The notes under the pieces: generated by a model
Database searches by the model: none
What the model was told of the DNA's origin: nothing
The model's input: the letters and a program-made list of their open reading frames with translations, nothing else
Virus record (IMG/VR): IMGVR_UViG_3300009509_000009
Location: 1 to 64,000 of that record
From: a virus
Direction: 5' to 3' (one strand)
Length of the DNA stretch: 64,000 bases
Made by a program: the position numbers and the translations under genes
Part shown: positions 16,676 to 63,522 of the stretch, in pieces
How positions within the stretch are numbered: position 1 is the first letter of the stretch
Layout of the letters: every line of letters begins with the position of its first letter

Positions 16676-16710
16676 CAGTGTTCTTATGACGAGGTGGCTG
16701 GGTGCTTTGC
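16676..16710 (-). promoter_or_regulatory. Putative phage promoter, copy A
   Basis: GCA-N17-GTCATAAGAACACTG upstream of the 16-kb leftward operon. Confidence 0.75.
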
Positions 16711-16789
16711 CAAGCGGTTTCGGGGTGGTAGACTGGAGCGAGCTATTGTAAAAATCGTCGACGACTGAGTCGATGCCTATGGAGGAACG

Positions 16790-18010
16790 ATGATCAAGGT
16801 AGCCGGGGCTGTAGTGGACCCCTATGATGACGACTTCGCTTCCTTGAAGGACATGGCTGGAGGGCGGGGGCTCCCAGAGTTCATCAAGCAGGCAGGGATC
16901 ATGGAGCCTACGGCACTCAAGAACCTGCCTGATCATGCCTTCGCCGTCGTCATTCTTGGAGACGGTGAGCCCATGAGGAAGTTCGCGTGTGTGGATAAGG
17001 CACACACCGCAGTCAACGTGATGTACTTCACAGAGTACGGCGCTGATCTCCCCGCCCCCGTCAAGGAGAAGGTAGCCACCAATCTCTGCAAAGCCTGCGA
17101 ACATTTTGGGCTTGAGGCCCCTCCTCACATCAGGAAGGAGGCGGCTGGAGCCAAGAGACTCCTCAAGCATGACGGCGCAGAGATGATCGTGCCGGCGCGT
17201 GAGGGAGAGAAGACTTCAGAGCTCACCGGCACGATGACCATGCCGAACACGAAGCCGGTGCGCGTCAAGAAGGCGTCAGTACTCGACGAGCCATACGTGC
17301 ATGTCTCGAGCTTCATTCCCAAGACAGCTTCGACGACTCCCATGGACCCGGGTGTGTACGCTCTGGACAACGGGCAGCTCCCGCTGCTTGGATTCGACCA
17401 GGTCCTCGAGGCTGTGGACTACTTCGACAAGTATGCCATGAAGATGCACCCGAGAAAGCGCCATGATTTCGCAGTGAAGGTGGCCGCTCGGGCGGAGCAG
17501 CTCGGCATTCCCGTGTCTGAAGATCTCGAGAAGTATGGGTCGCGCAAGTACGCGCAGGCCGGCTCGATCAAGGTGGCTGTCGAGACGCGAAAGCGCATGT
17601 GGCATAGCCTTGGAGACGGGGAGCGGCACGGAATCGGTGGAGAGATGCTCGACCGTCTCTTCGAGAAAAGAGCGAGCGTCAATCCCGAGGTGTTTGCCGA
17701 ATCCCTAGCTGAGCTTGACGCGCAGCTCGGCCTGTCCCACTACTGGGATAGCGGCATTCCCGATCCCTGGTACAGCACGTTCGGGATCGAGAAGAAGGCA
17801 GCGTGGTCCTGGAATCAGGGCGGCGAGTACGTCACCGAGGATGAGCTCACGCGGCTGGCACGGGAAGAGACTGATCTCTTGGAGGATAGATTCGGGAACG
17901 ACGTGGCTAAGGGGTTGGCAAACAACCCCACGACCGTGTTCGACTCGCTTCCTCTGGATAAGAAGCGTATCATCGCTCGGATGGCCCAACAGAGGGGCTC
18001 TGGTTTGTGA
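16790..18010 (+). CDS. Putative head-associated protein with two LPDxAFA/RKF-DxAH-type repeats and many KxA motifs
   Basis: GGAGG RBS; KNLPDHAFAV...RKFACVDKAH and a weaker second copy; KQAG, KEAA, KKAS, KTAS, KRAS, KKAA. Confidence 0.6.
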   Translation: MIKVAGAVVDPYDDDFASLKDMAGGRGLPEFIKQAGIMEPTALKNLPDHAFAVVILGDGEPMRKFACVDKAHTAVNVMYFTEYGADLPAPVKEKVATNLCKACEHFGLEAPPHIRKEAAGAKRLLKHDGAEMIVPAREGEKTSELTGTMTMPNTKPVRVKKASVLDEPYVHVSSFIPKTASTTPMDPGVYALDNGQLPLLGFDQVLEAVDYFDKYAMKMHPRKRHDFAVKVAARAEQLGIPVSEDLEKYGSRKYAQAGSIKVAVETRKRMWHSLGDGERHGIGGEMLDRLFEKRASVNPEVFAESLAELDAQLGLSHYWDSGIPDPWYSTFGIEKKAAWSWNQGGEYVTEDELTRLAREETDLLEDRFGNDVAKGLANNPTTVFDSLPLDKKRIIARMAQQRGSGL

Positions 18011-18048
18011 TCACCCCGGTCAGGGAGATCGGGTAGGAGGAAAGCAAA

Positions 18049-18771
18049 ATGGCAAGTAAGGCAATGGCGCAACAGCGTGCAGCGAAGCCCCACCTGACCT
18101 CGGGGAAGGGTGGCGTGGCTGGTGAGGTGGACGATCTTCGAGGGGATGTCGACAGCGCCCTCGAGACCTTCGAGTCCCGCTCGGGCTATCCAGAGCTCGA
18201 CTACATCGACGGGGCAGGTCCGGCAGCAGCCGGCGGTGATATGGTCATGGTCGGCAGGCTTCTCCTGCAAGGTCAGGCCTTCGCCAGCCTGACGCTCGGC
18301 GCATCGCTCGACATCATCGCCAGGGTCCCCGGCAGGGCCGGCAACGACTACAGCGTGGAGGTCATCGACTCCGGCGGCGTGGGTGGACTGGCAGTGTCGT
18401 GGGCAGCAGACAAGCTCACGATCGACCTCGATGGTGCAACCCCCAACGAGGATGCCATCGCCACGGCCATCAACGACGCCGGCGTTGGGTCCCCGCTGCG
18501 AGCGAACTCAGGTGGTGGAGCGGCCTTCGGTACGGTCGCCGAGACCTCGCTGGCCGGCGGAGCTGGCGACGGCTGGAGCTGTACGGTTGGTGGCTTCGAC
18601 GCCCCGATCAAGTTCGACACGGGTGCTGCGACGTCCAACGCCAACCTCACCGAGACTCAGGTCACCGTTACTGTCCCGGCTTTGGCCCCGATCGTCGCCA
18701 CCGACAAGGCGCACGTCTCGGTCACGACGGATGGGATCCGGTCCGACCTCGGTGCGGTGGCAGTCGAGTAG
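18049..18771 (+). CDS. Putative virion structural protein (sheath-like beta-rich domain)
   Basis: AGGAGG RBS; ARVPGRAGNDYSVEV...LAGG pattern typical of sheath-associated domains. Confidence 0.5.
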   Translation: MASKAMAQQRAAKPHLTSGKGGVAGEVDDLRGDVDSALETFESRSGYPELDYIDGAGPAAAGGDMVMVGRLLLQGQAFASLTLGASLDIIARVPGRAGNDYSVEVIDSGGVGGLAVSWAADKLTIDLDGATPNEDAIATAINDAGVGSPLRANSGGGAAFGTVAETSLAGGAGDGWSCTVGGFDAPIKFDTGAATSNANLTETQVTVTVPALAPIVATDKAHVSVTTDGIRSDLGAVAVE

Positions 18772-18776
18772 TAGAG

Positions 18777-20715: not shown

Positions 20716-20720
20716 GTCTG

Positions 20721-22604: not shown

Positions 22605-22605
22605 G

Positions 22606-22646
22606 ACTAAAAGAAATCGCCGGACCCGTTGGAACGAGCCCGGCGA
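22606..22646 (-). terminator. Leftward intrinsic terminator
   Basis: Long stem with two G-U pairs only on the minus strand, followed by TTTCTTTTAG. Confidence 0.75.
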
Positions 22647-22673
22647 CGTGGGGTTTCCTTGGCTACTCTTTAC

Positions 22674-22769
22674 CTACCGTTGTCGACTGGCCGTCTCTTT
22701 GACGACGAGGTAGTGGGTCACCCGGGCAAGGTAGGTGCCCACTGCAGCCAGGATGAAAAGCTCAACCAT
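22674..22769 (-). CDS. 31-aa hydrophobic peptide (not in ORF track)
   Basis: GAGGAGG RBS; MVELFILAAVGTYLARVTHYLVVKETASRQR. Confidence 0.55.
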   Translation of the reverse strand: MVELFILAAVGTYLARVTHYLVVKETASRQR

Positions 22770-22899
22770 CGTCGTCCTCCTCTTCATCGTCGTCTTGGCG
22801 ATCGTCCTGTTGTTCTTGAGCTGGTTGGCTCTGAGAACTCATGGCTAGAAGATCGTTCTCGAGGGCTGCGAAGAAATCCGGCTTGTTCCACTCTCCCAT
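22762..22899 (-). CDS. 45-aa acidic peptide (not in ORF track)
   Basis: GAAGGGG RBS; MGEWNKPDFFAALENDLLAM...DDDEEEDDDG; directly downstream of promoter copy B. Confidence 0.55.
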   Translation of the reverse strand: MGEWNKPDFFAALENDLLAMSSQSQPAQEQQDDRQDDDEEEDDDG

Positions 22900-22951
22900 A
22901 TCCAATCCCCTTCTTTTCCCTGCGAGAGTTGGAATCTAAGCTGGTGCTCTT

Positions 22952-22986
22952 CAAAGCTCTTATAACCACTAGATTGACCACCCTGC
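22952..22986 (-). promoter_or_regulatory. Putative phage promoter, copy B
   Basis: GCA-N17-GTTATAAGAGCTTTG. Confidence 0.75.
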
Positions 22987-23003
22987 GGCGAGGCTGCTAA
23001 GGT
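22974..23003 (+). promoter_or_regulatory. Possible sigma70-type promoter of the RNAP gene
   Basis: TTGACC-N18-TAAGGT with TGn extended -10; overlaps copy B on the other strand. Confidence 0.4.
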
Positions 23004-23030: not shown

Positions 23031-26000
23031 ATGGCCCGGCTAGACCCTAGAGAGGGGTTCGAGCTCCTCAAAGACAGGGTGACTACCGAGGTGAAGGCTG
23101 CGTTCCCCCAGGAGGGGAACGATCACATTCTCGACATCGAGAATGTGGAGATCCAGGACGAGCTGGACCCCGAGGATATTGAGGGTCAGAAGAAAGCGAA
23201 GCTCGGTGGATCAACCTGGGGAGTCCCCGTGAAAGCAGAGTTCGTCTTGAAGGACAAGGCGAGCGGCAAGGTCATCAACCGAAGTAAGATCAAGGTGGCG
23301 ACGATCCCGAAGCATACTCGTCGTCATTCCTTCATAGTCGGTGGATCTGAGTACCAGGTGGACAACCAGTGGCGGTTGAAGCCCGGTATCTACACACGTG
23401 TCGCGCAGAACGGTCAGCTCGAGTCACGGTTCAACTTCCAGGGCAAGATGAACCTCGATATGATCTTCGACCCCAAGAGCAGGAAGTTTCAGCTCAAGCA
23501 CGGTGGGTCGAAGCCGCCGCTCTATCCAATACTCAAGGCGGTTGGCGTTGACGACGACGCGCTACAGCAGGCGTGGGGCAAAGAGATCCTCAACGCCAAC
23601 AAGACAACGCCGAATGGAAAGGCGCTGAACGTAGAGAAGCTAGCGATCGGTTTCGCCAAGAGACTCGATCCAAACAAAGACGTCAAGAACTTCGACGACG
23701 CTGGAGATGTCATTCGTGAATACATGGGTACGGCGGAGCTCAGACCCGACGTGACCAAGCTCACGCTAGGCAAGGAGTTCAATACCATCACGCCTGAAGC
23801 ACTCACGAGGACGTCGGGTAGACTTCTTGGTGTAGCTAGAGGCGACAAGCCAGACGTGCGGGATGCTCTGCAGTTCAAAGATCTTCTCAGCACGGAGGAC
23901 TTCATCGCTGAGCGTCTTCAGCAAAGCGCCAAGATCATCAAGCGCAGGATACAGAACAACATAGATCGAAGGACCACCGTTCGTGAGATCGTGGGGCCAG
24001 ACATTTTCGATCGACCCGTCAAAGAGTTCTTCTCGAAGACGTCGCTGGCGAATACACCTCAGCAGGTCAATCCACTCGAGATGTTGTCCGGCCAGCAGCG
24101 TACCACTATCACTGGAGAGGGTGGAGTCAAGAGCGCACACAAGATCCAAGAGGACGCAAAGCTAGTAGATCCGTCACACTTCGGTGTGCTCGACCCACTA
24201 CACACTCCGGAGTCCGACAAGACAGGAGTGACACTACACCTTGCCATGAGCGCCGTGAAGAAGGGCAACAAGGCCTTCGTCCCACTGCACAATGTCAAGA
24301 CTGGAAAGGTAGAGTATCTCGATCCAGAGACGGTCAATGAGAAGATCGTGGCAATGCCGGATGAGGGTAGGTGGGACAAGGGTAAGTGGGTGCCCAACGC
24401 GAAGAAGGTCAAGGCGAGTACGCTGGGCAATGAGATTCGAGACGTCGACTCCTCCAAGGTCCAGTACGTCATGAAGAATCCTGGTCAGATGTTCTCTCTC
24501 GCCACCAACATGGTTCCGTTCCTCTCCTGCGACTCCCCGAATAGATCATCCATGGCTGGGAAGCAGATGGAGCAGGCGATCTCGCTGAAGTATAGAGAGC
24601 CGCCTCTAGTTCAGGTAGCGCGAGGAGACGGGACCAAGAAGACCTTCGACGAGTTCGTCGGGCGATATGCCTCTCATGAATCCCCAGTTGATGGGAAGGT
24701 GACCAACATCACTGACACGTTCATGGAGGTCAAGTCGGGGCGCAAGACACACAAGGTCCAGCTGTACAAGGACTATCCCCTCAATGACAAGAAGGGTCTT
24801 CTCCAGAGTACCCCTACGGTGAAGGTAGGGGACAAGGTGATGAAAGGGCAGACTGTAGCCGATACCAACTTCACAAAGGGCGGAGTCTACGCGCCTGGAG
24901 TGAACCTCAACATCGGGTACACGCCGTGGAAGGGCTACAACTTCGAGGACGGTGTGGTGATCTCTGAGTCTGCTGCGAAGAAGCTGACTTCAGAGCACAT
25001 GCACAAGAAGACCCTGTCCACAAAGGAGGCGAAAGCTCCCGGCAAGGAAGTCTTCATGTCCCACTTTGCCAGCAGTCTGGACAAGGAGCAGGCAGAGAAG
25101 CTGGACAGAGACGGCATCATCAAGCCGGGCATGAGGATCAGAAAGGGCGACACTCTCATCGCTGCAGTGGCCGACGCCCCGCCCACTACTGAGAATCAGA
25201 TGTTCAAGAATCTCCACCGATCATTGGTGCAGCCATTCGACAACCGATCTATCACCTGGGAAGAAGACCAGGAGGGTGAAGTCGTCAATGTCACCAAGAA
25301 GGGGAAGAAGATCCAGGTTCACGTCAAGACTGAAGAGCCGATGACTGTTGGCGACAAGATGGTTGGGCGCCACGGCAATAAGGGAATCGTCACCAAGATC
25401 TTGCCAGACAACGAGATGCCGTCGACCAAAGATGGCAAGCCCCTCGAGGTGCTGATGAATCCAATCGGTATTGCTGGTCGGATGAACATCGGTCAGGTGC
25501 TTGAGACAGCAGCCTCTAAGGTAGCTGAGAAGCGCGGACGCCCGCTCAAGATCACAAACTTTGGAGTCAGTGATAGCCGCACGGAGATCGAGAATCTGCT
25601 GAAGCGGCATGGAGTATCAGATCGAGAGACCATTGTAGATCCAAAAGACGGGACGGAGATAGAGGGCATCCAGGTTGGAAAGCAGTACATCCTCAAGCTC
25701 CAACACCAAGTAGATAAGAAGATGTCTGCTCGAGACAGAGCTGGCTACGATCGTAACTTGATCCCAAAGGGCGGCGGGAAGCACGGTGCTCAGGCGCTAG
25801 GAGCTCTCGGCATGTACGCCATGTTAGCTCACGGGGCTAAGCACAACATCCGTGAGATGCAGACCTACAAGTCTGATAAGGCGCAGAACGACGATCTTTG
25901 GAGCGCCATTCAGACTGGTGAGCCACTGCCTCCTCCGAAGACTACCTTCGGGTATCAGAAGTTCGAGTCCTACCTCAAGGGAATGGGCGTCGACACGCAG

Positions 26001-29000
26001 AAGGATGGGAACTCCCTGAATCTCATACCACTGACTGACAAGCAGGTGGAGGAGATGTCTTCTGGGGAACTCAAGGATGCGGGGCGGGCTGTTCGAGGGT
26101 ACAAGATTGGATCGAAGCGCAGAGGCTCAATAGATCCTGAGAAGTCTGGTCTATTCGATCCGCAGATCACCGGGGGCTTGGATGGCACCAGGTGGTCTCA
26201 CATCAACCTAGCAGAGCCAGTGCCAAATCCACTCTTCGAGAAAGCAGTCCGTAGTCTCACCGGGATTCGTGGACCTCAGTTCAATCGTCTGATCGAAGGC
26301 AAGGACGGCGTCGATAAAGACGGAAAGATAGTTCCTCCGGGTACTCAGGGAGCTCTCTACGGTCCTCAGTCCATTGGTCTCATGCTGGATAAGGTAGACA
26401 TCAACAAGGACCTGCAGGCCGCGCAAGCGAAGCTCCCAACCATCAAGAATCGTCAGCCACTGAATGAGACACGCCGAAAGATCAAGTACCTGCAGGCCCT
26501 GCAGAAGGTTGGCCTGTCCCCTCGTGAAGCGTACATGACCTCGAAGGTTCCAGTTCTTCCTCCAGCGATGAGGCCTCTATCAATGCTCGAGGACGGAGCT
26601 CTGCAGTTCGATGATCTCAACCAGCTCTACAAGGACGTGGCCCTACTTGATCAGCAGATCAAGGAGATGCCCAGCTTCGCGCCAGACAGCGCGAAGGCAG
26701 AGGCTAGGGCTGACGTATACGATCGGATGAAGGCCCTAACTGGTCTTGGTGGCTCCCTCAAGGGAAGGTACAAGGGGATAGCCGACATCATAGCCGGAGA
26801 CAATCCGAAAAGTGGTTACGCCCAGGACAAGCTGATCAAGAGGAAGATGGACCTGTCCATGAGGTCCACTATCGTGCCCGAGCCTTCATTGTCCTTGGAC
26901 GAAGTAGCCATTCCTCGCAAGGCAGCTATGGAGATCTACAAGCCCTTCATCGTCAGGGAGCTCCGTATGTCCACGGGTTCCGGACCTCTCACTGCCAAGG
27001 AGATGGTGGAGGCCAATCACCCGGCTGCTCGGGAGGCCCTGAACCGAGTGGTTGAGGAGCGACCCCTCCTCATGAAGCGCGACCCAGTACTCCACAAGTA
27101 CGGCATTCAGGCCTTCAAGCCTAAGATCGTAGAGGGCAAGGCCATCAAGATACACCCCCTTGTGTGCTCCGGATTCAACGCAGACTTCGACGGGGACACC
27201 ATGAGCGCCACAGTACCCATCACCGAGGAGGCTGTGGATGAAGCCCGAAAGATGTTTCCGTCGAAGATGCTGTTCAATCCAGCCACCAAGGGAGTCATGT
27301 ACACGCCGGCCCATGAAGCTCAGGTTGGTCTCTACATGATGACGGACGTAAAGAAGAAAACGAACTACCAGTTCAAAGATCAAGCCGCCCTCGAGCGCGC
27401 AGTGAAAGAGAAGAAGCTGGGTCCTAATGATGCTGCCAAAGTAGGCGGGAACTTCACAACACTAGATCGGTTGAGGCTCAACGCCACCCTGCCAACACAA
27501 CTGCAGGGAGGAAAGCTGCTCACTGATCTAGACTACCGCTTTACCAAGAAGGACCAGGGTCAGTTCTTCAAGCAGATGGCAGAGACGGACGAGAAGGGTT
27601 TCCCGATCAACATAGATAAGATGAAGGACGTGGGAAACCTGAAGGTCACTCATGGAGGGTTCAGCTTCGGGCTCAGTGACTTCAAAGTACACAAGGACAT
27701 TCGAGATCCGATCATGCGTGAGGCGGATAGGAGAGCGTCAGCTCTGGATTTGTCCAAGAAGAACGACATGAACAAGTTCGTCGACATCTATGAAGGTGCG
27801 ATGACCAAGATGAAGGATCGGCTGGATGTCAGAGTCAAGGAGCTCAGCACAAAGAACTCTTTGGCAATGCTCGAGACGGCAGCTGGGATCAAGGGTAAAG
27901 GGTACGCCCAGCTCACCACAGCTCCAGGTCTGTTCGTTGACGCAAAGGGAGAGGTAGTCGCCAGTCCAGTGAGGAAGTCGTACTCTGAGGGTCTCTCCGC
28001 TTCTGACTACTGGGCGTCAGTGAGCGGTGGACGCAAAGGAATCATCCAGCGAACGCAGTCTACAGCCAAGCCAGGCTATCTCACCAAGCTCATGATGAAC
28101 TCGGTGATGGACACCTTGGTGCAGGAGGACGACTGCGGTACCGATCGTGGGGTCAGTCTCAACATAGATGAACCAGACCTTATCGGTAGGTACACTACGG
28201 CCCCAATAAAGATCGGAAGCACGACGTTCAAGCCAGGAACTCTGGTCACTGCTGACATCGTCAACAAGGCCAAGAATGCTAAGGTCACCAGGATCGTTAG
28301 CCGATCTCCGATGCGTTGCAATCACGCACACGGCGTATGCGCGAAGTGCATGGGGCTCAACGAGAGAGGAGAGCACCACGGGCTCGGAACCAACATCGGC
28401 GTGCTGGCTGCCCAGGCTATCGGAGAGCGCGGAACCCAGCTCGCTATGAAGGCGTTCCACTCAGGCGGGGTGTACGAGGGTAAAGCCGCGCAGGAGAGGT
28501 CGATCACTGGTGGTGGGTTCGAGCGCGCCGTCACTCTGCTCTCCATGCCGAAGCAAGTGAAGGGATCTGCCAAGCTGGCTATCGCTTCTGGTAAGGTAGA
28601 GGCGGTGAAGAAAGATCCAGCGGGTGGGTTCGATGTGAAGATAGGCGGCGTCAAGCACTACATTCCTGCTGATCGTACACCGCTACCCGATCTGAAGAAG
28701 GGTAAGGCTTTCCGAAAAGGTGATCCTCTGACTAAGGGTCCTATCAATCCGAGGGAGCTGCTTCCTCTTACCAACATGAACAAGGTCCAGGGATACCTGG
28801 CTTCGGAGCTACACAGTCTCTATGCCCCAGAAGGAATCAGACGTAGAAACTCCGAGGTCCTCGTCAGGTCACTATCCAACGTCACCAAGGTCGAGGACTC
28901 TGGAGATAGCTCGTCGTGGATCAGGGGAGACTTTGCTCCGACTGCTGTAGTCAACGAGTGGAATCGTAAGAACGCCAAGCGCGGGCTGAAACCTGTACAG

Positions 29001-29213
29001 CACACGCCAGTTCTTCGTGGGGTCAAGACTATCCCCGAAGATGTGCAGACAGATTGGCTAGCCCGATTGAATCATGAGAACATCAGGTCTACCCTAGTAG
29101 AAGCGGCACAACAGGGTTGGGCGAGTAATCTTCACGGTGATCACCCAATCCCGCCGATGATCGTGGGTAAGGAGTTCGGCAAGGGAACAAAGGATAAGCC
29201 CTGGTCGTACTAA
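23031..29213 (+). CDS. rpoBC: Single-chain DNA-directed RNA polymerase, fused bacterial-type beta and beta' subunits
   Basis: Beta motifs GYNFEDG, GDKMVGRHGNKG, NPIGIAGRMNIGQ, KLQHQV; beta' motifs RSTIVP, RDPVLH, GFNADFDGD, GGRKG...AKPGYLT, DCGT/CNHAHGVCAKC, AAQAIGERGTQLAMKAFHSGG. Confidence 0.97.
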   Translation: MARLDPREGFELLKDRVTTEVKAAFPQEGNDHILDIENVEIQDELDPEDIEGQKKAKLGGSTWGVPVKAEFVLKDKASGKVINRSKIKVATIPKHTRRHSFIVGGSEYQVDNQWRLKPGIYTRVAQNGQLESRFNFQGKMNLDMIFDPKSRKFQLKHGGSKPPLYPILKAVGVDDDALQQAWGKEILNANKTTPNGKALNVEKLAIGFAKRLDPNKDVKNFDDAGDVIREYMGTAELRPDVTKLTLGKEFNTITPEALTRTSGRLLGVARGDKPDVRDALQFKDLLSTEDFIAERLQQSAKIIKRRIQNNIDRRTTVREIVGPDIFDRPVKEFFSKTSLANTPQQVNPLEMLSGQQRTTITGEGGVKSAHKIQEDAKLVDPSHFGVLDPLHTPESDKTGVTLHLAMSAVKKGNKAFVPLHNVKTGKVEYLDPETVNEKIVAMPDEGRWDKGKWVPNAKKVKASTLGNEIRDVDSSKVQYVMKNPGQMFSLATNMVPFLSCDSPNRSSMAGKQMEQAISLKYREPPLVQVARGDGTKKTFDEFVGRYASHESPVDGKVTNITDTFMEVKSGRKTHKVQLYKDYPLNDKKGLLQSTPTVKVGDKVMKGQTVADTNFTKGGVYAPGVNLNIGYTPWKGYNFEDGVVISESAAKKLTSEHMHKKTLSTKEAKAPGKEVFMSHFASSLDKEQAEKLDRDGIIKPGMRIRKGDTLIAAVADAPPTTENQMFKNLHRSLVQPFDNRSITWEEDQEGEVVNVTKKGKKIQVHVKTEEPMTVGDKMVGRHGNKGIVTKILPDNEMPSTKDGKPLEVLMNPIGIAGRMNIGQVLETAASKVAEKRGRPLKITNFGVSDSRTEIENLLKRHGVSDRETIVDPKDGTEIEGIQVGKQYILKLQHQVDKKMSARDRAGYDRNLIPKGGGKHGAQALGALGMYAMLAHGAKHNIREMQTYKSDKAQNDDLWSAIQTGEPLPPPKTTFGYQKFESYLKGMGVDTQKDGNSLNLIPLTDKQVEEMSSGELKDAGRAVRGYKIGSKRRGSIDPEKSGLFDPQITGGLDGTRWSHINLAEPVPNPLFEKAVRSLTGIRGPQFNRLIEGKDGVDKDGKIVPPGTQGALYGPQSIGLMLDKVDINKDLQAAQAKLPTIKNRQPLNETRRKIKYLQALQKVGLSPREAYMTSKVPVLPPAMRPLSMLEDGALQFDDLNQLYKDVALLDQQIKEMPSFAPDSAKAEARADVYDRMKALTGLGGSLKGRYKGIADIIAGDNPKSGYAQDKLIKRKMDLSMRSTIVPEPSLSLDEVAIPRKAAMEIYKPFIVRELRMSTGSGPLTAKEMVEANHPAAREALNRVVEERPLLMKRDPVLHKYGIQAFKPKIVEGKAIKIHPLVCSGFNADFDGDTMSATVPITEEAVDEARKMFPSKMLFNPATKGVMYTPAHEAQVGLYMMTDVKKKTNYQFKDQAALERAVKEKKLGPNDAAKVGGNFTTLDRLRLNATLPTQLQGGKLLTDLDYRFTKKDQGQFFKQMAETDEKGFPINIDKMKDVGNLKVTHGGFSFGLSDFKVHKDIRDPIMREADRRASALDLSKKNDMNKFVDIYEGAMTKMKDRLDVRVKELSTKNSLAMLETAAGIKGKGYAQLTTAPGLFVDAKGEVVASPVRKSYSEGLSASDYWASVSGGRKGIIQRTQSTAKPGYLTKLMMNSVMDTLVQEDDCGTDRGVSLNIDEPDLIGRYTTAPIKIGSTTFKPGTLVTADIVNKAKNAKVTRIVSRSPMRCNHAHGVCAKCMGLNERGEHHGLGTNIGVLAAQAIGERGTQLAMKAFHSGGVYEGKAAQERSITGGGFERAVTLLSMPKQVKGSAKLAIASGKVEAVKKDPAGGFDVKIGGVKHYIPADRTPLPDLKKGKAFRKGDPLTKGPINPRELLPLTNMNKVQGYLASELHSLYAPEGIRRRNSEVLVRSLSNVTKVEDSGDSSSWIRGDFAPTAVVNEWNRKNAKRGLKPVQHTPVLRGVKTIPEDVQTDWLARLNHENIRSTLVEAAQQGWASNLHGDHPIPPMIVGKEFGKGTKDKPWSY

Positions 29214-34444: not shown

Positions 34445-34852
34445 CTATTTATCTGACCCCTGGTCAGCTGGCTTCTTCCGCTTCCACTTCTTCCGCTTCT
34501 TGTACGGAGCGAGTGATAGTAGGAATCCGTCTCGATCCATCATCATGTGTACTACTCGCTGCTGGCCGGAGCTTCGAGCTTCCGCCACGATGACGTTGTA
34601 GATGAGTTTGGCTGACTCTTTGTCTGATCCCAGAGGGAGGGGCATGCTCACCCTGACGAGGTCAAGTTCCACCGGTCCGAACTCGATTTCGTGTGCAAGG
34701 CAGCAATACCCTCGATCGGTATCGGCCACACCGATCTCTCCCTCCATAACGAAGCTGAGCCGTTTGAGCGCTACCTTGAGCCACTCAGGGCTGGCTGGTT
34801 TGCTCTGCTGGTTCAACGGCTTCCTGGTCTGCTTCCTTCTCGATGGAGCCAC
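34445..34852 (-). CDS. Hypothetical protein, basic C-terminus
   Basis: Second gene of a leftward island; start uncertain. Confidence 0.5.
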   Translation of the reverse strand: MAPSRRKQTRKPLNQQSKPASPEWLKVALKRLSFVMEGEIGVADTDRGYCCLAHEIEFGPVELDLVRVSMPLPLGSDKESAKLIYNVIVAEARSSGQQRVVHMMMDRDGFLLSLAPYKKRKKWKRKKPADQGSDK

Positions 34853-35504
34853 ACTCGTGAAGGATCATGCGGTCTCGGGTAGCCTTGTCGAGATGATTGA
34901 CGATCGGGATATCATCCTCGTTCTTCCTCACCTCTATCCACCCGAGAGAGGGCGCCAGAACGCTCTTGACCGCGCTGTCTACTGCAGCGCGTAGATCGTT
35001 GATGGTAACGCTGACTGCCGTGGCGACACCCTTGATGGGGGTGTGACCCTCGAACTTGCCGTCGTCGCCCTCGAACCTGATGAAGCGACTGCCGAAGTCA
35101 CCGGGGTTCTCGGTGAGGTCGAAGTCTGCCTCTTTCTTGTTCGGGCCAATGATCAGGCCGTTGCGATTGTCACCGTCCAACCACACAGTGATGTCTACCA
35201 GCTCGCCAGCCTTCTTGCGAGCTGACTTCAGGATGGTAAGTTTTGGCAGCACACCGGTGAACTCCTGCGCCGCGCCCAACCTCGCCTGCAGCATGGTGCT
35301 CTCCATGCTGTTCAGACGCCTCTTACGTCCGACCACTCCTCCCTTCGCGCGCTTCTCCGGCGGTACCCCCGCCATCAAGCTGTCTCCAAGCACATCCCGT
35401 GGGAGGTACTTGTCCATTTCCCTCAGCTCATCCTTGGTGTATCCCATGGATGTTGCGAGGGGCTCCAATTGAGCCAATGTGTACTTGACCTTCTTCTTGC
35501 CCAT
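34785..35504 (-). CDS. Hypothetical protein
   Basis: AGGAGG RBS, downstream of promoter copy C. Confidence 0.75.
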   Translation of the reverse strand: MGKKKVKYTLAQLEPLATSMGYTKDELREMDKYLPRDVLGDSLMAGVPPEKRAKGGVVGRKRRLNSMESTMLQARLGAAQEFTGVLPKLTILKSARKKAGELVDITVWLDGDNRNGLIIGPNKKEADFDLTENPGDFGSRFIRFEGDDGKFEGHTPIKGVATAVSVTINDLRAAVDSAVKSVLAPSLGWIEVRKNEDDIPIVNHLDKATRDRMILHECGSIEKEADQEAVEPAEQTSQP

Positions 35505-35542: not shown

Positions 35543-35577
35543 CAAAGAGCTTATAACCAGGAAGTGTGGTAAGATCA
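35543..35577 (-). promoter_or_regulatory. Putative phage promoter, copy C
   Basis: GTTATAAGCTCTTTG; the upstream GCA is replaced by TGA. Confidence 0.65.
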
Positions 35578-35582: not shown

Positions 35583-37376
35583 ATGTCAGCCATTCTAGAA
35601 GATGTTAGGACTCCCAGGATCGAGCCACGGTTCGACTTGGACCTTGAAGACGAGCTCATTGATAGCTTCATTGATCCTGATGAAGAAGCTGAGATGGCCG
35701 AGCTTGACGCTATCATAGATGGCGTTGCTTACAAGCCTCCTGAGAGTCAGCTACCAGAGATCACTCCCTCTGAATTTACAGAGTTCGCCATCAGGATACC
35801 GGTGAAGGGTGACCTCGAGAGGTTCAGCTTCGAGGGCCGTGAGTACCTGCGTGAGATCTATGACACACCAGCTCGCCGCATACTCATGAAGTGTGGGCGT
35901 CAGACAGAGAAGTCTACCACTCTGGGGAACAAGTGCCTGGCGTACTGTGGGATCAACGGCAACTTCAATGTGCTGTACGTCAGCGCAACTGCCCAGCAAG
36001 CTCAGGTCTTTTCGGTAGACCGGATCAAGAACGTGATCGAGACCTCACCAGAGTTCGCTCATCTGGTCGACAGGAAGCTCCAGCAGAACGTTCTCTTCAA
36101 GCAGTTCAAAAACAGATCCAACATCAGAATCAGGTACGCCTTCCTGTCTGCAGACCGCGTTCGTGGTATTCCAGCAGACAAGATCTTGATCGATGAGATC
36201 CAGGACATCATCACCGATAACATACCAGTCATTGAGGCATGCGCCTTCCACTCTGACTGGAAGATCTTCTGCTACTCAGGCACTCCAAAGAGTCTGGATA
36301 ATACGATCGAGGTATACTGGGCGGACTTCAGCACGCAGAACGAGTGGGTAGTTCCGTGCGAGGCCTGTGGCGGTACCAGCCGTCGTAAGGACACCTGGCA
36401 CTGGAACATTCTCGGATCAAGGAACATCGGTAAGAAAGGTCTGGTGTGCGCCAAGTGCAAGAGATCGATCAACCCGAGACACCCAGACGCGCAGTGGTCA
36501 TCCAGGCAGCCAATAACGAAGGAAAATAGGAACCGAGTATCATTCGAGGGCTATCGAATTCCTCAGCTGATGGTACCGTGGGTAGACTGGGAAGAGGTAC
36601 TGTCTGCTCGTGAGCGATTCTCCACAGCTCAGTTCAACAACGAGGTCCTCGGACTGTCATACGATTCTGGCGTACGACCGCTCACAAGGGCACAGATCAA
36701 GTCGTGTTGCAAGGAAGAGATACACTTCACTGACCTAGAAGAGAATGCCCGCAAGTGCCACGGTGGAGTGTTCGCTGGTATCGACTGGGGTACTGGGGAG
36801 AATACCTACACAGTCATCTCACTTGGCGGTTACATGGGAGGATCGTTCCAGATATTCTTCTGCCACCGCTTCACTGGTGACGATCTTGAACCCAGAATGC
36901 AGCTGGATAAGATCGCCAAGCTGCTTCACGCAGTGAGGTTCAGGTGCTGTGGTGCTGACTACGGCGGAGGCTTCGACAAGAACGATTGGCTGATGAGAAA
37001 CTTCGGCCCAACAAAGTTCGTCAAGTTTCAGTACGCTCCGAACCCGAGTAAGAAGATCTACTGGCAGCCGAAGCTCGGCCGCTACATCGCCCACCGCACC
37101 GAGATCATGAGCGACATTTTCAACGCTCTCAAGCGTAAGCAGATCTGGCTGCCCAACTGGGAGGAGTTTGTCACTCCGCATGGAGAGGACATCCTCAACA
37201 TCTTCAGTGAGTGGAACGCCCAGCTCAGAATGCTGCAGTACAAGGTTAGCCCAGGGAAGACAGACGACACCTTCCACTCGATTCTATACTGCATGCTTGC
37301 CTCTATGATCGGCGGGAAGATGAGACCAGATATTCTGGTTCCAGTTCGTGAGGGCGACGTCCTGTTTCATGGTTAG
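35583..37376 (+). CDS. terL: Terminase large subunit (lambda gpA-like features)
   Basis: Walker A CGRQTEKST, Walker B ILIDE, SGTP, CEAC/CAKC, FNNEVLG, nuclease GIDWG and DD.FH. Confidence 0.9.
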   Translation: MSAILEDVRTPRIEPRFDLDLEDELIDSFIDPDEEAEMAELDAIIDGVAYKPPESQLPEITPSEFTEFAIRIPVKGDLERFSFEGREYLREIYDTPARRILMKCGRQTEKSTTLGNKCLAYCGINGNFNVLYVSATAQQAQVFSVDRIKNVIETSPEFAHLVDRKLQQNVLFKQFKNRSNIRIRYAFLSADRVRGIPADKILIDEIQDIITDNIPVIEACAFHSDWKIFCYSGTPKSLDNTIEVYWADFSTQNEWVVPCEACGGTSRRKDTWHWNILGSRNIGKKGLVCAKCKRSINPRHPDAQWSSRQPITKENRNRVSFEGYRIPQLMVPWVDWEEVLSARERFSTAQFNNEVLGLSYDSGVRPLTRAQIKSCCKEEIHFTDLEENARKCHGGVFAGIDWGTGENTYTVISLGGYMGGSFQIFFCHRFTGDDLEPRMQLDKIAKLLHAVRFRCCGADYGGGFDKNDWLMRNFGPTKFVKFQYAPNPSKKIYWQPKLGRYIAHRTEIMSDIFNALKRKQIWLPNWEEFVTPHGEDILNIFSEWNAQLRMLQYKVSPGKTDDTFHSILYCMLASMIGGKMRPDILVPVREGDVLFHG

Positions 37377-37540: not shown

Positions 37541-38116
37541 TCAAGCGGCTTTGCGTCCGCGCTTCTTTGCGGCCGGCTGCTTGGTCGTGGACTGCTTGGT
37601 TTTTCTGGCTGCACGCTTCTTGGGGGTGGGGGTGGGGACGTCGGTGATCTGGGTGCCGAGCGCTTCGACGTCTTCCTTCACGGACTCGAGCTCTGCGTTC
37701 AGCTCCTTCTTGAGCGCCTCCTTCAGGCCGCTTCGGAGAGTGTTGATCTCTCCTTGGAGCTGGGTCTCCTGCGCCTTCATCACCTTCTCGGCCTCGAGGG
37801 CGAAGCTGTTGATGGCGCTCACGGTGTTCTTGTCGAGCTGTCGGGTAACGCCGGCTGCGGCGCCAAAGCCCATGACGGCGCCCGACGTCGAACCGATCGT
37901 GATTCCGAGCCAGTCAGCCAACTCCAAGAGGCGCCCGGTGCTCCAGCCCAACAGCGCGCCGAGTCCCGCACCGCCGATCGTTCCCAGCAGATACACGAAC
38001 CAGTATCTGCCCAACGAACTCCCAAAGGTCAGCTCCTTGGCCGTCTTCTCGGCGATCTTGCTGATCTCCTTCTCGGTCTTCTCCTCTTTCTTCTCTGTCT
38101 TCGTCTCGTCTGACAT
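37541..38116 (-). CDS. Membrane protein (Gly-rich TM hairpin, coiled coil, basic tail)
   Basis: YWFVYLLGTIGGAGLGALLGW...; AGGAGG RBS; downstream of promoter copy D. Confidence 0.75.
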   Translation of the reverse strand: MSDETKTEKKEEKTEKEISKIAEKTAKELTFGSSLGRYWFVYLLGTIGGAGLGALLGWSTGRLLELADWLGITIGSTSGAVMGFGAAAGVTRQLDKNTVSAINSFALEAEKVMKAQETQLQGEINTLRSGLKEALKKELNAELESVKEDVEALGTQITDVPTPTPKKRAARKTKQSTTKQPAAKKRGRKAA

Positions 38117-38158
38117 TGTCTTCCTCCTGACCTAATAGGTTAGGTCGCAATCTGGGTT

Positions 38159-38193
38159 CAATGATCTTATGACTGGAGGAAGGTCGGTTTTGC
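38159..38193 (-). promoter_or_regulatory. Putative phage promoter, copy D
   Basis: GCA-N17-GTCATAAGATCATTG. Confidence 0.75.
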
Positions 38194-38196: not shown

Positions 38197-38940
38197 TTAG
38201 AGGGCTGCCAGACGGCCCCTACTGCCTGTCTTCTTCATCTGGCGGGCCAGGTCATCGAAGGCGTCGATATCATTCGAGGCGAGGTGCTGAAGGAGCTTCT
38301 GGCTTGGCCCGAGCTCTGCGGCTCGCTCTACGAACAGTACTGCGATAGTGGACAGGTTCTTTCTGGCGACGACCAGGAGGTCACGAATGCGTTGAAGCTC
38401 GAGATTTGTTTTTAGGTCTTGGTGGGTAGCCACGAACTTGGTGGCCCTCATGCACAGCTGGTAGAAAGTCTGCCAAGAGTGATCTACTTTTAGCATATCA
38501 TTCAGCCGATCGATCTCTAGCTCTGTGATCTTGATAAAGATCTCGCAGAAACTGAGAAGCCTGTCTGTAGGCCAGGAATCTTCCCCGAGCTCCATCTCTA
38601 CCACCTGGTAAAGTTGGATGAGCTGGTCGTCCTCCATCTTAGTGAACCTCGATGCCACGAGACCGTTGACCTCGAAGAGCATGTTCAGGGCCTCTTTGAG
38701 GCGTTCGACTTCTCGCTCGAGGAATAGTAGGCGACGTATCATATCGCCAGGAGCAATCTCTCCTGCTATGTTCAGTCGATGGATCTCTGCGACGTCAGCA
38801 GTGCGTACATAGCAGCTGTCGCCCTCGTACTTCCTGCGAATGAGGCCTTGGTCGCATAGGTCATGGACCTTCTTCTGGGGGCAGTTGAGGATCCCCGCTG
38901 CCTTTGAAACTGGAATGAACTCTTTAGGGTTGCTTCCCAT
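38197..38940 (-). CDS. DNA-binding protein with N-terminal MerR/excisionase-like HTH
   Basis: FIPVSKAAGILNCPQKKVHDLCDQGLI followed by a coiled coil. Confidence 0.7.
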   Translation of the reverse strand: MGSNPKEFIPVSKAAGILNCPQKKVHDLCDQGLIRRKYEGDSCYVRTADVAEIHRLNIAGEIAPGDMIRRLLFLEREVERLKEALNMLFEVNGLVASRFTKMEDDQLIQLYQVVEMELGEDSWPTDRLLSFCEIFIKITELEIDRLNDMLKVDHSWQTFYQLCMRATKFVATHQDLKTNLELQRIRDLLVVARKNLSTIAVLFVERAAELGPSQKLLQHLASNDIDAFDDLARQMKKTGSRGRLAAL

Positions 38941-38985
38941 GCGATCCTCTATATGCTAGTTTTTATAGTAGCAGTAGTGGGAGTA

Positions 38986-46093: not shown

Positions 46094-47218
46094 ATGAGTG
46101 TTCCCGCAAGAGTGTTGAACGAGCTCTTCTCCCAGAAACTCTCCACAGGAGAGGGCAAGGAGAAGATCGCTGAGTACGGTGGCGCTTACATCCGAGACAG
46201 GCTGCGTGAGGTTTCGTACGCTCGCCAGATCCTGCCGCCGGAGAACGTCACCAGAACCGACTGCCAACGGTCAGTCAACCACGACACCCTCGTGAAGGTC
46301 ATCGACGTGGAGCCGGAGAGCCGGGCCATGGCGATCACCTTCCGTGGTCAGCCCACCGCGCGGTTCATCCGTGCGCCCCGTGCCGAGGTTCCCTTCTTCA
46401 CGATCTCCTCGGAGAAATTCGAGAAGACCGAGCAGGAGCTCCTCGCGTACGAGATGCCCATCACCAAGGTCATCGAGGACAACACGGTGAAGGACATCCA
46501 AGAGGTGGAGGACCGTGAGTTCACGATCCACATCGAGGCTGCCGTCCAGGCCCTTCAGGCCGAGGCGAACAGCGCCGCCACCTCTCCCGAGCTGTCCTCG
46601 AACACCATCGGGACCACCGTCGAGTTCTCGGTCACGAAGGGTGAGATCGCTCGCAACTTCACCGGGACCCCCGACGCCACGGTCCATCCGCTTCAGAGGC
46701 CGGACATCGTTCGTCTCTGCAAGCTCCTCGATGGGAATCGGCTCCGCTCGGAGCGGATCCTCATGACCGAGGTGGAGTTCGACGACATCAACCAGTGGAC
46801 CGTCGAAGACTTCGGCGACAAGATGCAGTCCGAGACCACCGTCGACGGGTACAAGTACTCGACGCTGTTGGGCAAGGCGTTCGTCCGCACGATCAAGACG
46901 GACATCCTCCGCCCCGGCAACGTGTACGTGTTCACTCGTCCCGAGTTCTTCGGGAAGTTCTACATCCTCAACCAGGTGAAGTTCTACATCGACAAGATTG
47001 CGAACCTGATCACCTGGCAGTCCTGGGAAGACATCGCCATGTCGGTGATCAACATCGCTTCGGTGCGGAAGCTCGAGCTCTACTCGGCCGACGCCTCGAA
47101 TGCCGACGCCCAGGGCCTCAGGGATGCGAACTTCATCCCGGTGATCGAGGAGGACCTCGGCGCGATCAACAACCGCGTCGATAAGGGATGGGTGTTCCCG
47201 CAGGTGCAGAGCTTCTAG
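46094..47218 (+). CDS. Major capsid protein (HK97 fold inferred)
   Basis: 374 aa; IRDRLREVSYARQILPP, KDIQEVEDREF; extreme G/C3 codon bias; follows protease/scaffold/decoration; followed by a terminator. Confidence 0.8.
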   Translation: MSVPARVLNELFSQKLSTGEGKEKIAEYGGAYIRDRLREVSYARQILPPENVTRTDCQRSVNHDTLVKVIDVEPESRAMAITFRGQPTARFIRAPRAEVPFFTISSEKFEKTEQELLAYEMPITKVIEDNTVKDIQEVEDREFTIHIEAAVQALQAEANSAATSPELSSNTIGTTVEFSVTKGEIARNFTGTPDATVHPLQRPDIVRLCKLLDGNRLRSERILMTEVEFDDINQWTVEDFGDKMQSETTVDGYKYSTLLGKAFVRTIKTDILRPGNVYVFTRPEFFGKFYILNQVKFYIDKIANLITWQSWEDIAMSVINIASVRKLELYSADASNADAQGLRDANFIPVIEEDLGAINNRVDKGWVFPQVQSF

Positions 47219-55166: not shown

Positions 55167-55176
55167 GAGAGGACCA

Positions 55177-58602: not shown

Positions 58603-58611
58603 GAGGGGCCC

Positions 58612-59760: not shown

Positions 59761-59791
59761 GCTACGTGATACAACAAGTGAGGAGGCTCTG

Positions 59792-60544: not shown

Positions 60545-60556
60545 ACCCGGAGGTGG

Positions 60557-61444: not shown

Positions 61445-61456
61445 CTCGGCGATTTA

Positions 61457-61549
61457 GTCATAGTGAACAGTTGTTCACGTATGACGCCGGCGTTTGACAT
61501 ACTGCGTCAAATACCCCTAACGCATCGAACTGACCCAAACGGGGTATTT
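61457..61549. repeat. Cluster of inverted repeats between convergent genes
   Basis: GTCATA-GTGAACA-GT-TGTTCAC-G-TATGAC; TTTGAC-N7-GTCAAA; AAATACCCC...GGGGTATTT. Confidence 0.7.
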
Positions 61550-61566
61550 CGTTCGTTGACATGACC

Positions 61567-61592
61567 AGCTAAGGTTGGAGCCCGAAGGCTCC
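61567..61592 (-). terminator. UUCG hairpin at the end of a leftward unit
   Basis: GGAGCC-TTCG-GGCTCC followed by AACCTTAGCT (no U tract). Confidence 0.55.
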
Positions 61593-61601
61593 TCGAGGGC
61601 C

Positions 61602-62018
61602 TCAGCCCTCCCGGTGGATGCGGTCGACGAACTCCTCGGCGGCGTTGACGTCGTCTCTGAGCCTCTTCCAGGTGATGGACAGCTCGTCCTTCCACGCCAT
61701 GTGAGCTCGGACAATGGCTGCGTGGAGCATCCGCTCGATGAACTTCCGCTCGGCCGGCGTAGTCATCTGCATGAGGTTGGGCGCCTCGTCGTCCTCGTAG
61801 AAGCGGAAGCACGGGCGCTTGTAGTGGGGGAGGGTGGAGCAGAGGAGCCAATCCATAATGGATCTGTATTGCTCCTCGGGGCTAGGCCTCTTGATCATCC
61901 GCAAGGCCTTCTGGTAGTCGCGCTCCTTCTCGAGGAGACGCTCGAGCTCGGGGAAACATTCGTTGCTGGCCGGCTCTTGTATCTGTAGTGGTTGACACGA
62001 CTGGCGGAACATCGACAT
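61602..62018 (-). CDS. Hypothetical protein
   Basis: GGAGGAGG RBS, downstream of promoter copy E. Confidence 0.75.
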   Translation of the reverse strand: MSMFRQSCQPLQIQEPASNECFPELERLLEKERDYQKALRMIKRPSPEEQYRSIMDWLLCSTLPHYKRPCFRFYEDDEAPNLMQMTTPAERKFIERMLHAAIVRAHMAWKDELSITWKRLRDDVNAAEEFVDRIHREG

Positions 62019-62072
62019 TGATACCTCCTCCCTCTACGGGATCAGTAGGAAAAAGAGTCCGTACTGCGACCT

Positions 62073-62107
62073 CAAAGATCTTATTACTAGGGACGATCTA
62101 CTTTTTC
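62073..62107 (-). promoter_or_regulatory. Putative phage promoter, copy E
   Basis: GAA-N17-GTAATAAGATCTTTG. Confidence 0.7.
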
Positions 62108-62649
62108 TTCCACCACTCGTCGACCTTAGAAAGATCCAGCGGCTCATCTACGAGCTTGAATCCATCGTCAGTGGCGAGCATGGCTACTGGGATAGCTTCG
62201 ACGTCTTCGTCGAACTCATCAACATGATCGTCGAATCCTTCTCCAGGGCCACCAAGGTCCTCTTCCTCGGGTGGTATGGCTGGTAGGGCGCCGGCAGCCA
62301 GGCGAGCTCTTTCCTCAGCTCTGCCACTGAGCCAATCTTCTGCGAGTCGTTCGAGGTCCTCGTTGATTTCAGCTCCCTCGAGAACATCTTGCAGATATTG
62401 ATGATCGAGACGATCCCACATCTCTGGATTCTCTAGAGCCTGTCTTGCGAATTCCTCTGGCTCGAGCTGATGCTCTCTTAGCAGACTGAATGGTCTCTCC
62501 TTGGGAGTCTTTGGAGTGGGACCCGCTGGCTTGAGTGAGTCGAACACTTCCTGGGCAAACTCTCCTGGCTCGAGCGGCCTCAGATAGGCGCGCGATTCAC
62601 TTAGATCAGCTTCAGGGTCTATTTGACCCTCCCAGAAATGACGTGCCAC
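62098..62649 (-). CDS. Hypothetical acidic protein
   Basis: GTG start directly after the upstream stop. Confidence 0.6.
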   Translation of the reverse strand: MARHFWEGQIDPEADLSESRAYLRPLEPGEFAQEVFDSLKPAGPTPKTPKERPFSLLREHQLEPEEFARQALENPEMWDRLDHQYLQDVLEGAEINEDLERLAEDWLSGRAEERARLAAGALPAIPPEEEDLGGPGEGFDDHVDEFDEDVEAIPVAMLATDDGFKLVDEPLDLSKVDEWWKKK

Positions 62650-62651
62650 AG

Positions 62652-62888
62652 TTAGAGCTTATCAGACGGGTGATCTGCTAGCCAGCGGTGCATCCAGCAG
62701 ATATTCTCCGGATCAGCTTCAGAGACCATCTGCATCTTCACCCGGTGCTGTTCAATGAGTACCTGAATCAGCTCTCCTACGGTGAAGCGCTTGCCTATCT
62801 TGTCCTCGAGGCGCTTGCACTCCTGCTCGAGGAACGAGGCTTGGTCTCTGGTGATGTTGAGAGCTACGCGGCGCACTCTGCCTCCCAT
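62652..62888 (-). CDS. Possible ribbon-helix-helix DNA-binding protein
   Basis: RRVALNIT strand, helix, then TVGELIQVLIE helix. Confidence 0.5.
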   Translation of the reverse strand: MGGRVRRVALNITRDQASFLEQECKRLEDKIGKRFTVGELIQVLIEQHRVKMQMVSEADPENICWMHRWLADHPSDKL

Positions 62889-63409
62889 GTGGTGAGGGCT
62901 GCCTTGACTCTGGCTGGTCTGTCTTGAGGTCGGCCCTCTTCAACCTCCTTCATGCGCGCATTGATCTGAGCCCTCACGATGTGCTCTGGGATTCCGTAAC
63001 CCCCGAACTGGACAACGCGACCCATCATCCACTCCTCGTCCCTCTTCCTGCCCGGGAAGCAGAGTATCTCGGCCTGGACACTCTCACTCTCGTAGTACAT
63101 CCGGAAGTTCTTGGAGAGCAGATACCAGATCGGCATATGCCACACTAAGAACTGAAGCCTGTGCGTGAGCTCGTGGCAAGACAGTGATGATGGCTCATCG
63201 TCTTCTGTCATGTGCCCGCTGTAGATTATTCCCCACAGCGTAGTGGTGTAGTCCTTCATGAACTTCTCCTTAGGGAAGTCCACGATCTTGAGCTTGGTGA
63301 GGAAGGCCAGGAGAGAGCCGATAGCTTGCATGAGCCACGACTCCTCCTTTGGCACCACCTTCACCTTGGCTACTGATCTGCTGAAGTACTTGATGAATGA
63401 CTCTGGCAT
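62864..63409 (-). CDS. HExxH zincin-like protein
   Basis: HELTHRLQ with downstream YESE; GAGGTG RBS. Confidence 0.6.
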   Translation of the reverse strand: MPESFIKYFSRSVAKVKVVPKEESWLMQAIGSLLAFLTKLKIVDFPKEKFMKDYTTTLWGIIYSGHMTEDDEPSSLSCHELTHRLQFLVWHMPIWYLLSKNFRMYYESESVQAEILCFPGRKRDEEWMMGRVVQFGGYGIPEHIVRAQINARMKEVEEGRPQDRPARVKAALTTWEAECAA

Positions 63410-63487
63410 GGTTCACCTCTAAAGAAGCGTCGGTGTCCTCTCACTCGTGGAGCGCCCCACTCGATTCCACCTGACTTCAGGTCCCTG

Positions 63488-63522
63488 CATAGTTCTTATG
63501 CCGTCTTGCGTCTCTTCTTTGC
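63488..63522 (-). promoter_or_regulatory. Putative phage promoter, copy F
   Basis: GCA-N17-GGCATAAGAACTATG, overlapping the stop codon of the upstream gene. Confidence 0.7.

Follow-up and report, generated by a model that had tools for sequence, protein, structure and literature searches.

Bacteriophage N4 carries in its virion an RNA polymerase (RNAP) that is encoded among the late genes and reads special early promoters, its late genes being served by host-type promoters. Virions of phiKZ and AR9 contain a multisubunit RNAP that serves early transcription (PMC7598289; PMC7824862), and a review of large phages treats the possession of an own RNAP and that of an own sigma factor as converse, alternative strategies (PMC7824862). 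Here we describe a recurrent intergenic sequence, GnnATAAG with an upstream G[C/A]AA box, in a window of 64,000 nucleotides of viral DNA (positions 1 to 64,000 of IMG/VR record IMGVR_UViG_3300009509_000009, the first 64 kb of one viral contig of 79,665 bp, labeled G000) that also encodes a single-chain beta-beta' RNAP. Judged by their composition and placement, the six copies in the window are very probably promoters, and the reading that we favor, at a probability of roughly 0.6, is that they would be recognized by a phage sigma factor together with the phage beta-beta' enzyme. Literature searches returned no description of the motif or promoter, nor of a fused RNAP with a sigma factor, and this is a promoter class for which no published description was found.

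Six sites and the anatomy of the signal

Exact matches to GKHATAAGNNCWHTG occur at six positions of the window (16676, 22952, 35543, 38159, 62073, and 63488), all on the minus strand, where 0.03 would be expected by chance and where none of 100 shuffles reached six; the remainder of the contig holds no additional exact match. All six lie between genes in a simple gene call, and each has, 32 to 78 nt downstream on its own strand, a ribosome-binding site (RBS) and a start codon. The initial annotation had reported this consensus in six of six copies, each ahead of an RBS and start codon, as well as a GCA exactly 20 nt 5' of ATAAG in four of them, and all of these statements were reproduced (GCA at 16676, 22952, 38159, and 63488); the place of GCA is taken by GAA at 62073 and by nothing at 35543, and an upstream box is found in four to five of the six sites.

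Since the consensus had been written from the same six sites, an independent test was made with a position matrix trained only on three related complete genomes (68 intergenic sites) and not on the window. The top five matches of this matrix in the contig were five of the six sites (17 to 25 bits, against a mean maximum of 12.6 bits in the simulated null), and seven matches of at least 12 bits were observed versus 0.83 expected; the remaining site, at 35543, scored just 5 bits because it has no upstream box. A de novo k-mer count in the upstream regions of the contig ranked TATAA and TAAGAT(C) directly after Shine-Dalgarno (SD) words. The window, and the contig to about 64.5 kb, is colinear with 98 to 166 kb of the related genome G001 (178.5 kb), in which all six sites have positional counterparts, most of the directly downstream genes not being conserved. 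The sites are as follows, with scores from the relatives-only matrix.

16676..16710, minus strand: predicted promoter 1 (GCAA 16707-16710, G at -14 16690, ATAAG 16683-16687, predicted +1 G 16676); 19.8 bits; G001 counterpart at 114292
22952..22986, minus strand: predicted promoter 2, divergent from the RNAP gene (GCAG 22983-22986, ATAAG 22959-22963, predicted +1 22952); 18.0 bits
35543..35557, minus strand: predicted promoter 3, the weakest, without upstream box (ATAAG 35550-35554, predicted +1 35543), upstream of genes 34785-35504 and 34445-34729 and back to back with the terminase gene start; 5.0 bits; G001 counterpart at 135641
38159..38193, minus strand: predicted promoter 4 (GCAA 38190-38193, ATAAG 38166-38170, predicted +1 38159), upstream of gene 37541-38116; 22.0 bits; in G001 the counterpart, at 138592, immediately follows the ortholog of 38197-38940
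62073..62107, minus strand: predicted promoter 5 (GAAA 62104-62107, ATAAG 62080-62084, predicted +1 62073), upstream of gene 61602-62018; 17.1 bits
63488..63522, minus strand: predicted promoter 6 (GCAA 63519-63522, ATAAG 63495-63499, predicted +1 63488), the TAA of its ATAAG being the stop codon of the upstream open reading frame (ORF); it would serve 62864-63409 and the genes after it; 24.8 bits, the best match in the contig

The initial annotation had placed the motif before leftward units only, which holds within the window but not beyond it: just past the window end, the contig has a copy on the plus strand (64205-64219; 15.4 bits) that is directed at a rightward operon starting at 64510. 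The strand restriction is therefore due to gene layout, the window genes served being all leftward, and not a property of the signal. A minus-strand copy past the window end (64163-64177) has an RBS downstream of it, with an ATG at 64142. The gap concerned, of about 370 nt (contig 64143-64509), forms the boundary between the leftward block and a rightward block of small genes; it holds a third, weaker ATAAG box (64419-64433, minus strand), and G001 has the matching rightward site at 165402.

The anatomy of the signal was read from 39 distinct sites lying divergently upstream of the RNAP gene in relatives (selected on ATAAG, with positions counted from its first A) and from the intergenic sites of four genomes. 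In the alignment of 39, G stands at -3 in 36 sites and T-G at +10/+11 in 32 and 33, respectively, and the upstream box has G at -23 in 25, A at -21 in 35, and A at -20 in 36. All intergenic sites of the four genomes give the consensus G[C/A]AA, 15 to 16 nt, G-n-n-ATAA[G/C], 5 nt, T-G; [GT][CA]AA begins at -23 in 32 of 75 such sites and almost nowhere else, and an SD run begins at +11/+12, which is the predicted +1 G or the next base, in 22 of the 75 and essentially never earlier. Since a transcript must contain its own RBS, this sharp SD edge would mark the start, and initiation would take place at the final G, 7 nt after the hexamer nATAAG. With n-ATAAG taken as the -10 hexamer, occupying -12 to -7, position -14 is held by the conserved G, positions of about -34 to -31 by the upstream G[C/A]AA box, and +1 by the final G, and the box thus stands at the fixed distance (15 to 19 nt from the -10 element) of sigma70-family promoters.

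The transcript would begin with a short leader, often carrying a hairpin, followed by the SD sequence. Stem-loops are present within the first 40 nt of predicted leaders (e.g., window 38132-38149 and 16651-16669), and the region after +1 of the 39 RNAP-divergent sites folds better than shuffled sequence (P = 2.5e-4), an effect that is not universal, being absent in the relative G004, where leaders are about 15 nt; the 36 nt upstream fold no better than other segments in a coarse test.

It is very improbable, in our judgment, that the word is no promoter at all but a regulator binding site, an RNA processing site, or the trace of another constraint, such as methylation (GATC is found in several copies). 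In favor of such explanations, ATAAGATC is frequent in G000 and G001; against them speak (i) the fixed-distance upstream box, the predicted purine start after T, and the sharp SD boundary, (ii) an orientation that in every case agrees with that of the downstream gene, whichever strand it is on, and (iii) the lack of GATC in the consensus of the relatives G004 and G005, Vibrio phage D69, and Salmonella phage Arash.

Distribution across related phages

CheckV estimates contig G000 to be 43% complete. The full genome would measure about 180 kb, the contig representing about 43% thereof, and DNA nearly identical to it is present in metagenome runs of eight studies (marine sediment, soil, and mangrove), so that the remainder of the genome should be recoverable. 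A nucleotide search of a phage collection with the RNAP gene gave no match, and IMG/VR relatives of the RNAP comprise 67 loci at 39 to 62% identity (40 to 42% for G004 and G005), many on contigs of 170 to 195 kb and some with terminal repeats. The sources of the lineage are marine sediment and soil metagenomes as well as cultured Vibrio and Salmonella phages, and the genomes carrying the motif range from 45 to 62% in G+C content, D69 standing at 45%.

The intergenic bias that the initial annotation proposed as a check is found in all four genomes scanned: matches to GnnATAA[GC] lie between genes in 7 of 18 cases in G000, 19 of 23 in G001, 20 of 29 in G004, and 29 of 42 in G005, genomes whose intergenic share is only 10 to 15%. 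The top de novo upstream k-mer other than RBS words is of the ATAAG type in G000, G004, G005, and D69. In D69 upstream regions GTTATAAG occurs 15 times versus 0.64 expected, and in Arash GNNATAAGNNNNNTG has 21 matches, 19 of them on one strand, with 5 for the reversed control. An ATAAG-type box is located 40 to 140 nt upstream of the RNAP gene, directed away from it, in 51 of the 67 loci; other clades have ATAAC or ACAAG at this divergent position, and the variants track phage lineages. In the 67 short loci, the bare 5-mer ATAAG is only weakly enriched between genes (20.5%, versus 10 to 18% for permuted words), as called with a gene caller that misses ORFs of less than 50 aa; the signal requires the flanking G and the boxes.

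The gene classes of relatives, labeled by homology to the replication and virion genes of the window, show which genes are served. In G001, G004, G005, and D69, sites precede replication operons and many small genes of unknown function, on either strand, and they never precede virion genes or the RNAP gene, which extends the earlier remark, made from the window, that no copy was seen before rightward structural genes. The lineage displays, together, GnnATAAG, an upstream CAA box, an intergenic location before non-structural genes, and an encoded beta-beta' RNAP. As an observation of its own, an excess of CTTAG or TTAGCC was seen close to the promoters, in upstream regions of G004, G005, and G001 and in window leaders, TTAGCC being found 9 times versus 0.7 expected in G004; the words stand either immediately 5' of the GCAA box or directly ahead of the SD sequence.

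Could these be early promoters of the host polymerase, of the extended -10 type and read by the host primary sigma factor or by sigma-28, the phage RNAP being reserved for late genes? Several features suit this proposal, namely, the agreement of A-T-A-A with -11 to -8 of TATAAT, the G at -14, which fits the extended -10 position, the small, early-looking genes behind the sites, and an architecture like that of the sigma-28 promoter, TAAA-N15-GCCGATAA. Of the bases in the sigma70 -10 element, T at -7 ranks among the two that matter most. In the sites, by comparison, A at -11 is invariant and -7 is G (G/C in G005), with almost no T in three genomes, in the intergenic DNA of which GnnATAAG outnumbers GnnATAAT by 7 to 1 (G000), 18 to 1 (G001), and 20 to 0 (G004). 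The upstream box has no TTG, and a scan for the sigma70 consensus recovered not one of the six sites, in keeping with the earlier statement that the motif is not a sigma70 consensus. Moreover, this non-canonical word is common to phages of Salmonella, Vibrio, and unknown hosts across the G+C range given above, its ATAAC and ACAAG variants follow phage lineages, and the RNAP gene, which stands among virion genes, lies behind a canonical TTGCxx-N17-TAnnCT element, a better fit to the host enzyme. Service by the host polymerase is thus quite unlikely.

A phage sigma factor and polymerase as the candidate reader

The polymerase gene of the window is flanked by the portal gene and the baseplate-hub gene, and its upstream region showed no ATAAG promoter directed at it.

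23031..29213, plus strand: single-chain beta-beta' RNAP, 2060 aa (Pfam Rpb2_6 9e-61, Rpb1_2 2e-27, Rpb1_5 5e-21)

A conserved sigma factor of about 250 aa with regions 2 to 4 is encoded in G001 to G005, D69, and Arash, the seven complete or cultured relatives checked, and a beta-beta' polymerase accompanies it in all seven. A profile of three phage members alone matched sigma factors in the PDB at 2e-8; the conserved phage sigma factor matches FliA structures at 2.5e-5, and SigA-type structures score better. Two relatives have extra sigma factors, one of them FliA/WhiG-like. In Arash and D69 the sigma gene is located among virion genes, and liquid chromatography-tandem mass spectrometry of purified Arash particles detected beta (gp206) most, with beta' (gp216) and sigma (gp10) also detected (PMC10585845). 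In the initial annotation the motif had been assigned to the fused RNAP, or to a phage sigma factor, with +1 probably at the final G. This suggestion gains support from the two-part boxes, from the SD runs that begin at or next to the final G, from the conservation of the motif in the lineage, and from the conserved sigma factor and beta-beta' enzyme of the relatives.

In the mechanism that we propose, the sites would be two-part promoters of non-structural (early/middle) genes, and their reader would be the phage sigma factor (regions 2 to 4) joined to the single-chain beta-beta' polymerase. This holoenzyme would be made late, packaged, and injected with the DNA, so as to read the ATAAG promoters at the next infection and switch on their genes independently of the host enzyme. 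A different signal, host-like or late, would serve the virion genes and the polymerase gene. Detection of sigma factor and polymerase in virions of a cultured relative makes injection of the holoenzyme probable, and for the phage studied here we infer virion delivery; an N4-like logic is suggested by the Arash virion proteins combined with the fact that the RNAP gene lies among the clustered virion genes.

The same sigma factor could instead act on the host core polymerase, by appropriation as with SPO1 gp28 or T4 gp55, leaving the beta-beta' enzyme to another gene class. The two-part geometry needs just a sigma factor with regions 2 and 4, and many phages encode sigma factors that redirect the host core, a strategy described for jumbo phages without an own RNAP (PMC7824862). 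Set against this are the co-occurrence of sigma factor and beta-beta' enzyme in every complete or cultured relative checked and their joint detection in Arash particles (PMC10585845). The lineage has both an RNAP and a sigma factor, unlike the either/or of the large-phage review, which knows RNAP or sigma factor and not both (PMC7824862), and this pairing suggests joint function. We therefore regard the use of the host core as unlikely.

Recognition by the phage holoenzyme also has to be weighed against several observations that speak against it: (i) the site at 35543 has no upstream box; (ii) no sigma gene is present on contig G000, which is 43% complete and ends before the region that holds the gene in G001; (iii) the sigma gene of G004, and probably that of G005, lies behind an ATAAG-type promoter, so that sigma factor made de novo cannot be the sole route of first recognition, an arrangement that fits either a pre-made, injected sigma factor or autoregulation; (iv) the Arash particle proteome comprises 116 proteins, including metabolic enzymes, and its authors themselves consider carry-over possible (PMC10585845); (v) the ATAA core is identical to -11 to -8 of the host sigma70 consensus, and some host recognition of it is possible; and (vi) the predicted +1 and the reading enzyme are both deduced, from sequence features and gene content.

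The most complete version of the proposal would have the lineage carry a self-contained initiation machine, in which an alpha-less single-chain beta-beta' enzyme and a dedicated sigma factor are packed in the capsid, injected, and directed to ATAAG promoters that their G at -7 would make invisible to host sigma70, the late genes, including the RNAP gene, being left on host-type promoters. We advance this version tentatively, at somewhat less than even odds. If true, it would amount to an N4-like program built from cellular-type parts, and a holoenzyme of alpha-less beta-beta' and sigma factor would bear on bacterial RNAP assembly and -10 recognition. The promoter predicts (i) which genes are under phage control, i.e., replication and fast-evolving accessory genes, (ii) transcript starts, and (iii) the G at -7 as the single base separating phage from host recognition, and since Arash and D69 can be grown on laboratory hosts, both phages make the question open to experiment.

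Two window proteins were considered in connection with sigma factors. The 247-aa protein encoded at 38197-38940 was not accepted as one, showing only a weak N-terminal helix-turn-helix. The 183-aa protein at 62098-62649 (minus strand), which has no Pfam or NCBIfam match and a syntenic G001 homolog at 163556-164101, gave marginal matches to the FliA-like/WhiG-like sigma factor of a relative (pairwise BLAST 3e-5; phmmer 0.008 to 0.017).

Neighboring genes, divergent gaps, and known systems

None of the genes that immediately follow the six predicted promoters could be given a function from Pfam, PHROG, or NCBIfam. Other features of the window that bear on the arrangement are listed below.

661..16643, minus strand: replication operon behind predicted promoter 1, about 16 kb, syntenic with G001 98-114 kb
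14826-16178, minus strand: SF2 helicase, within the replication operon
4987-7164, minus strand: family A DNA polymerase with 3'-5' exonuclease, within the replication operon
22616..22899, minus strand: short unit behind predicted promoter 2, between the portal and RNAP genes
22762-22899, minus strand: 45-aa, very acidic ORF of this unit
22674-22769, minus strand: 31-aa hydrophobic ORF of this unit, overlapping the acidic ORF
22616-22647, minus strand: intrinsic terminator (14-bp stem with 9 G-C pairs, then a T tract)
35583-37376: large terminase
46094-47218: major head protein

Most of the 67 relatives likewise have, at this place, a small acidic ORF that is oriented away from the RNAP gene and preceded by an ATAAG box; many of these ORFs contain the stretch F/Y-E-x-x-I-D-x-L/M-F/Y. 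The product could be a modulator of the host or the phage polymerase.

In three divergent gaps of the window, the rightward genes have host-like boxes that stand back to back with the leftward ATAAG sites, and boxes of host-like or extended -10 type are also present at 38954-38973.

16707-16734, plus strand: TTGCCA-16-TAGACT with TG, divergent gap
22974-23003, plus strand: TTGACC-18-TAAGGT before the RNAP gene, divergent gap
35567-35575, plus strand: TGGTAAGAT, 7 nt before the terminase ATG, divergent gap
38954-38973, both strands: host-like or extended -10 boxes

The rightward -35 box overlaps the reverse complement of the leftward GCAA box in the divergent gaps, where the two polymerases may compete, and the terminase mRNA would be nearly leaderless. 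In most relatives TTGC[A/G]N-N17-TAnnCT precedes the RNAP gene, and its -35 box, read on the other strand, is the GCAAG box of the divergent ATAAG promoter. Canonical sigma70-type sites are not commoner than in shuffles, and TGnTAnnnT is enriched between genes just 1.5 to 2 times; given this weak enrichment, a second, host-like promoter class is a lead and not a result. A separate word was noted in D69 (OZ195729.1; loci L100-L109), where the AT-rich TAAAATAT(A) is intergenic in 21 of 32 cases, lacks an upstream box, and stands mostly before plus-strand virion genes. It is a candidate late promoter, reminiscent of the T4 late TATAAATA, and is not recognizably conserved in the GC-rich genomes.

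Compared with described promoters, the geometry appears to be that of the sigma70 family, and the closest named class would be that of sigma-28 (FliA/WhiG, group 3 sigma factors), with which the sites share a short A-rich upstream box, a 15- to 16-nt spacer, and an 8-nt -10 box ending in ATAA. The initial annotation had called this resemblance loose; the resemblance itself stands, but it is closer than that for the family consensus, since GCAA(A)-N15-nGGGATAA of G004 and G005 aligns with TAAA-N15-GCCGATAA, the window copies keeping only the ATAA end. The two classes differ in that the sites have GCAA in place of TAAA and a conserved G after ATAA, and in that the -10 box of the window is G-T-[C/T/A]-ATAAG without CCG, GATAA being a feature of the G004/G005 consensus and not of the window. 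With extended -10 sigma70 promoters (TGnTATAAT), the sites share the G at -14, A-T-A-A at -11 to -8, and a predicted start 7 nt after the hexamer; they differ in having G instead of T at -7 and a base at -12 that varies, and T is missing at -15 in the copies of the window. T4-type late promoters (TATAAATA, a -10 element only, read with gp55) are a poor match, as the sites have a fixed upstream box and avoid virion genes.

Among phages, the nearest systems are those of Arash and the Vibrio phages D69, D148, and D181, whose beta/beta' enzymes show 32 to 33% identity and are accompanied by the conserved sigma factor, and which share GnTATAAG-N5-TG, with a strong bias toward the strand of the non-structural genes; in contrast to the single 2060-aa chain of the window, the RNAP of these phages is split or interrupted. 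A broader likeness, by shared features and not by phylogeny, is to the RNAP-encoding Caudovirales of Weinheimer and Aylward 2020 (PMC7481178); promoters are mentioned neither there nor in the Arash paper (PMC10585845). The enzymes of phiKZ and AR9 are highly divergent, consist of four or five subunits, and have no sigma factor (PMC7824862), and their promoters are single AT-rich boxes. The N4 system is similar in the logic of a virion-carried enzyme, but its RNAP is single-subunit and T7-like and reads a DNA hairpin, whereas here a bacterial-type beta-beta' enzyme with a sigma factor would read a linear two-box signal.

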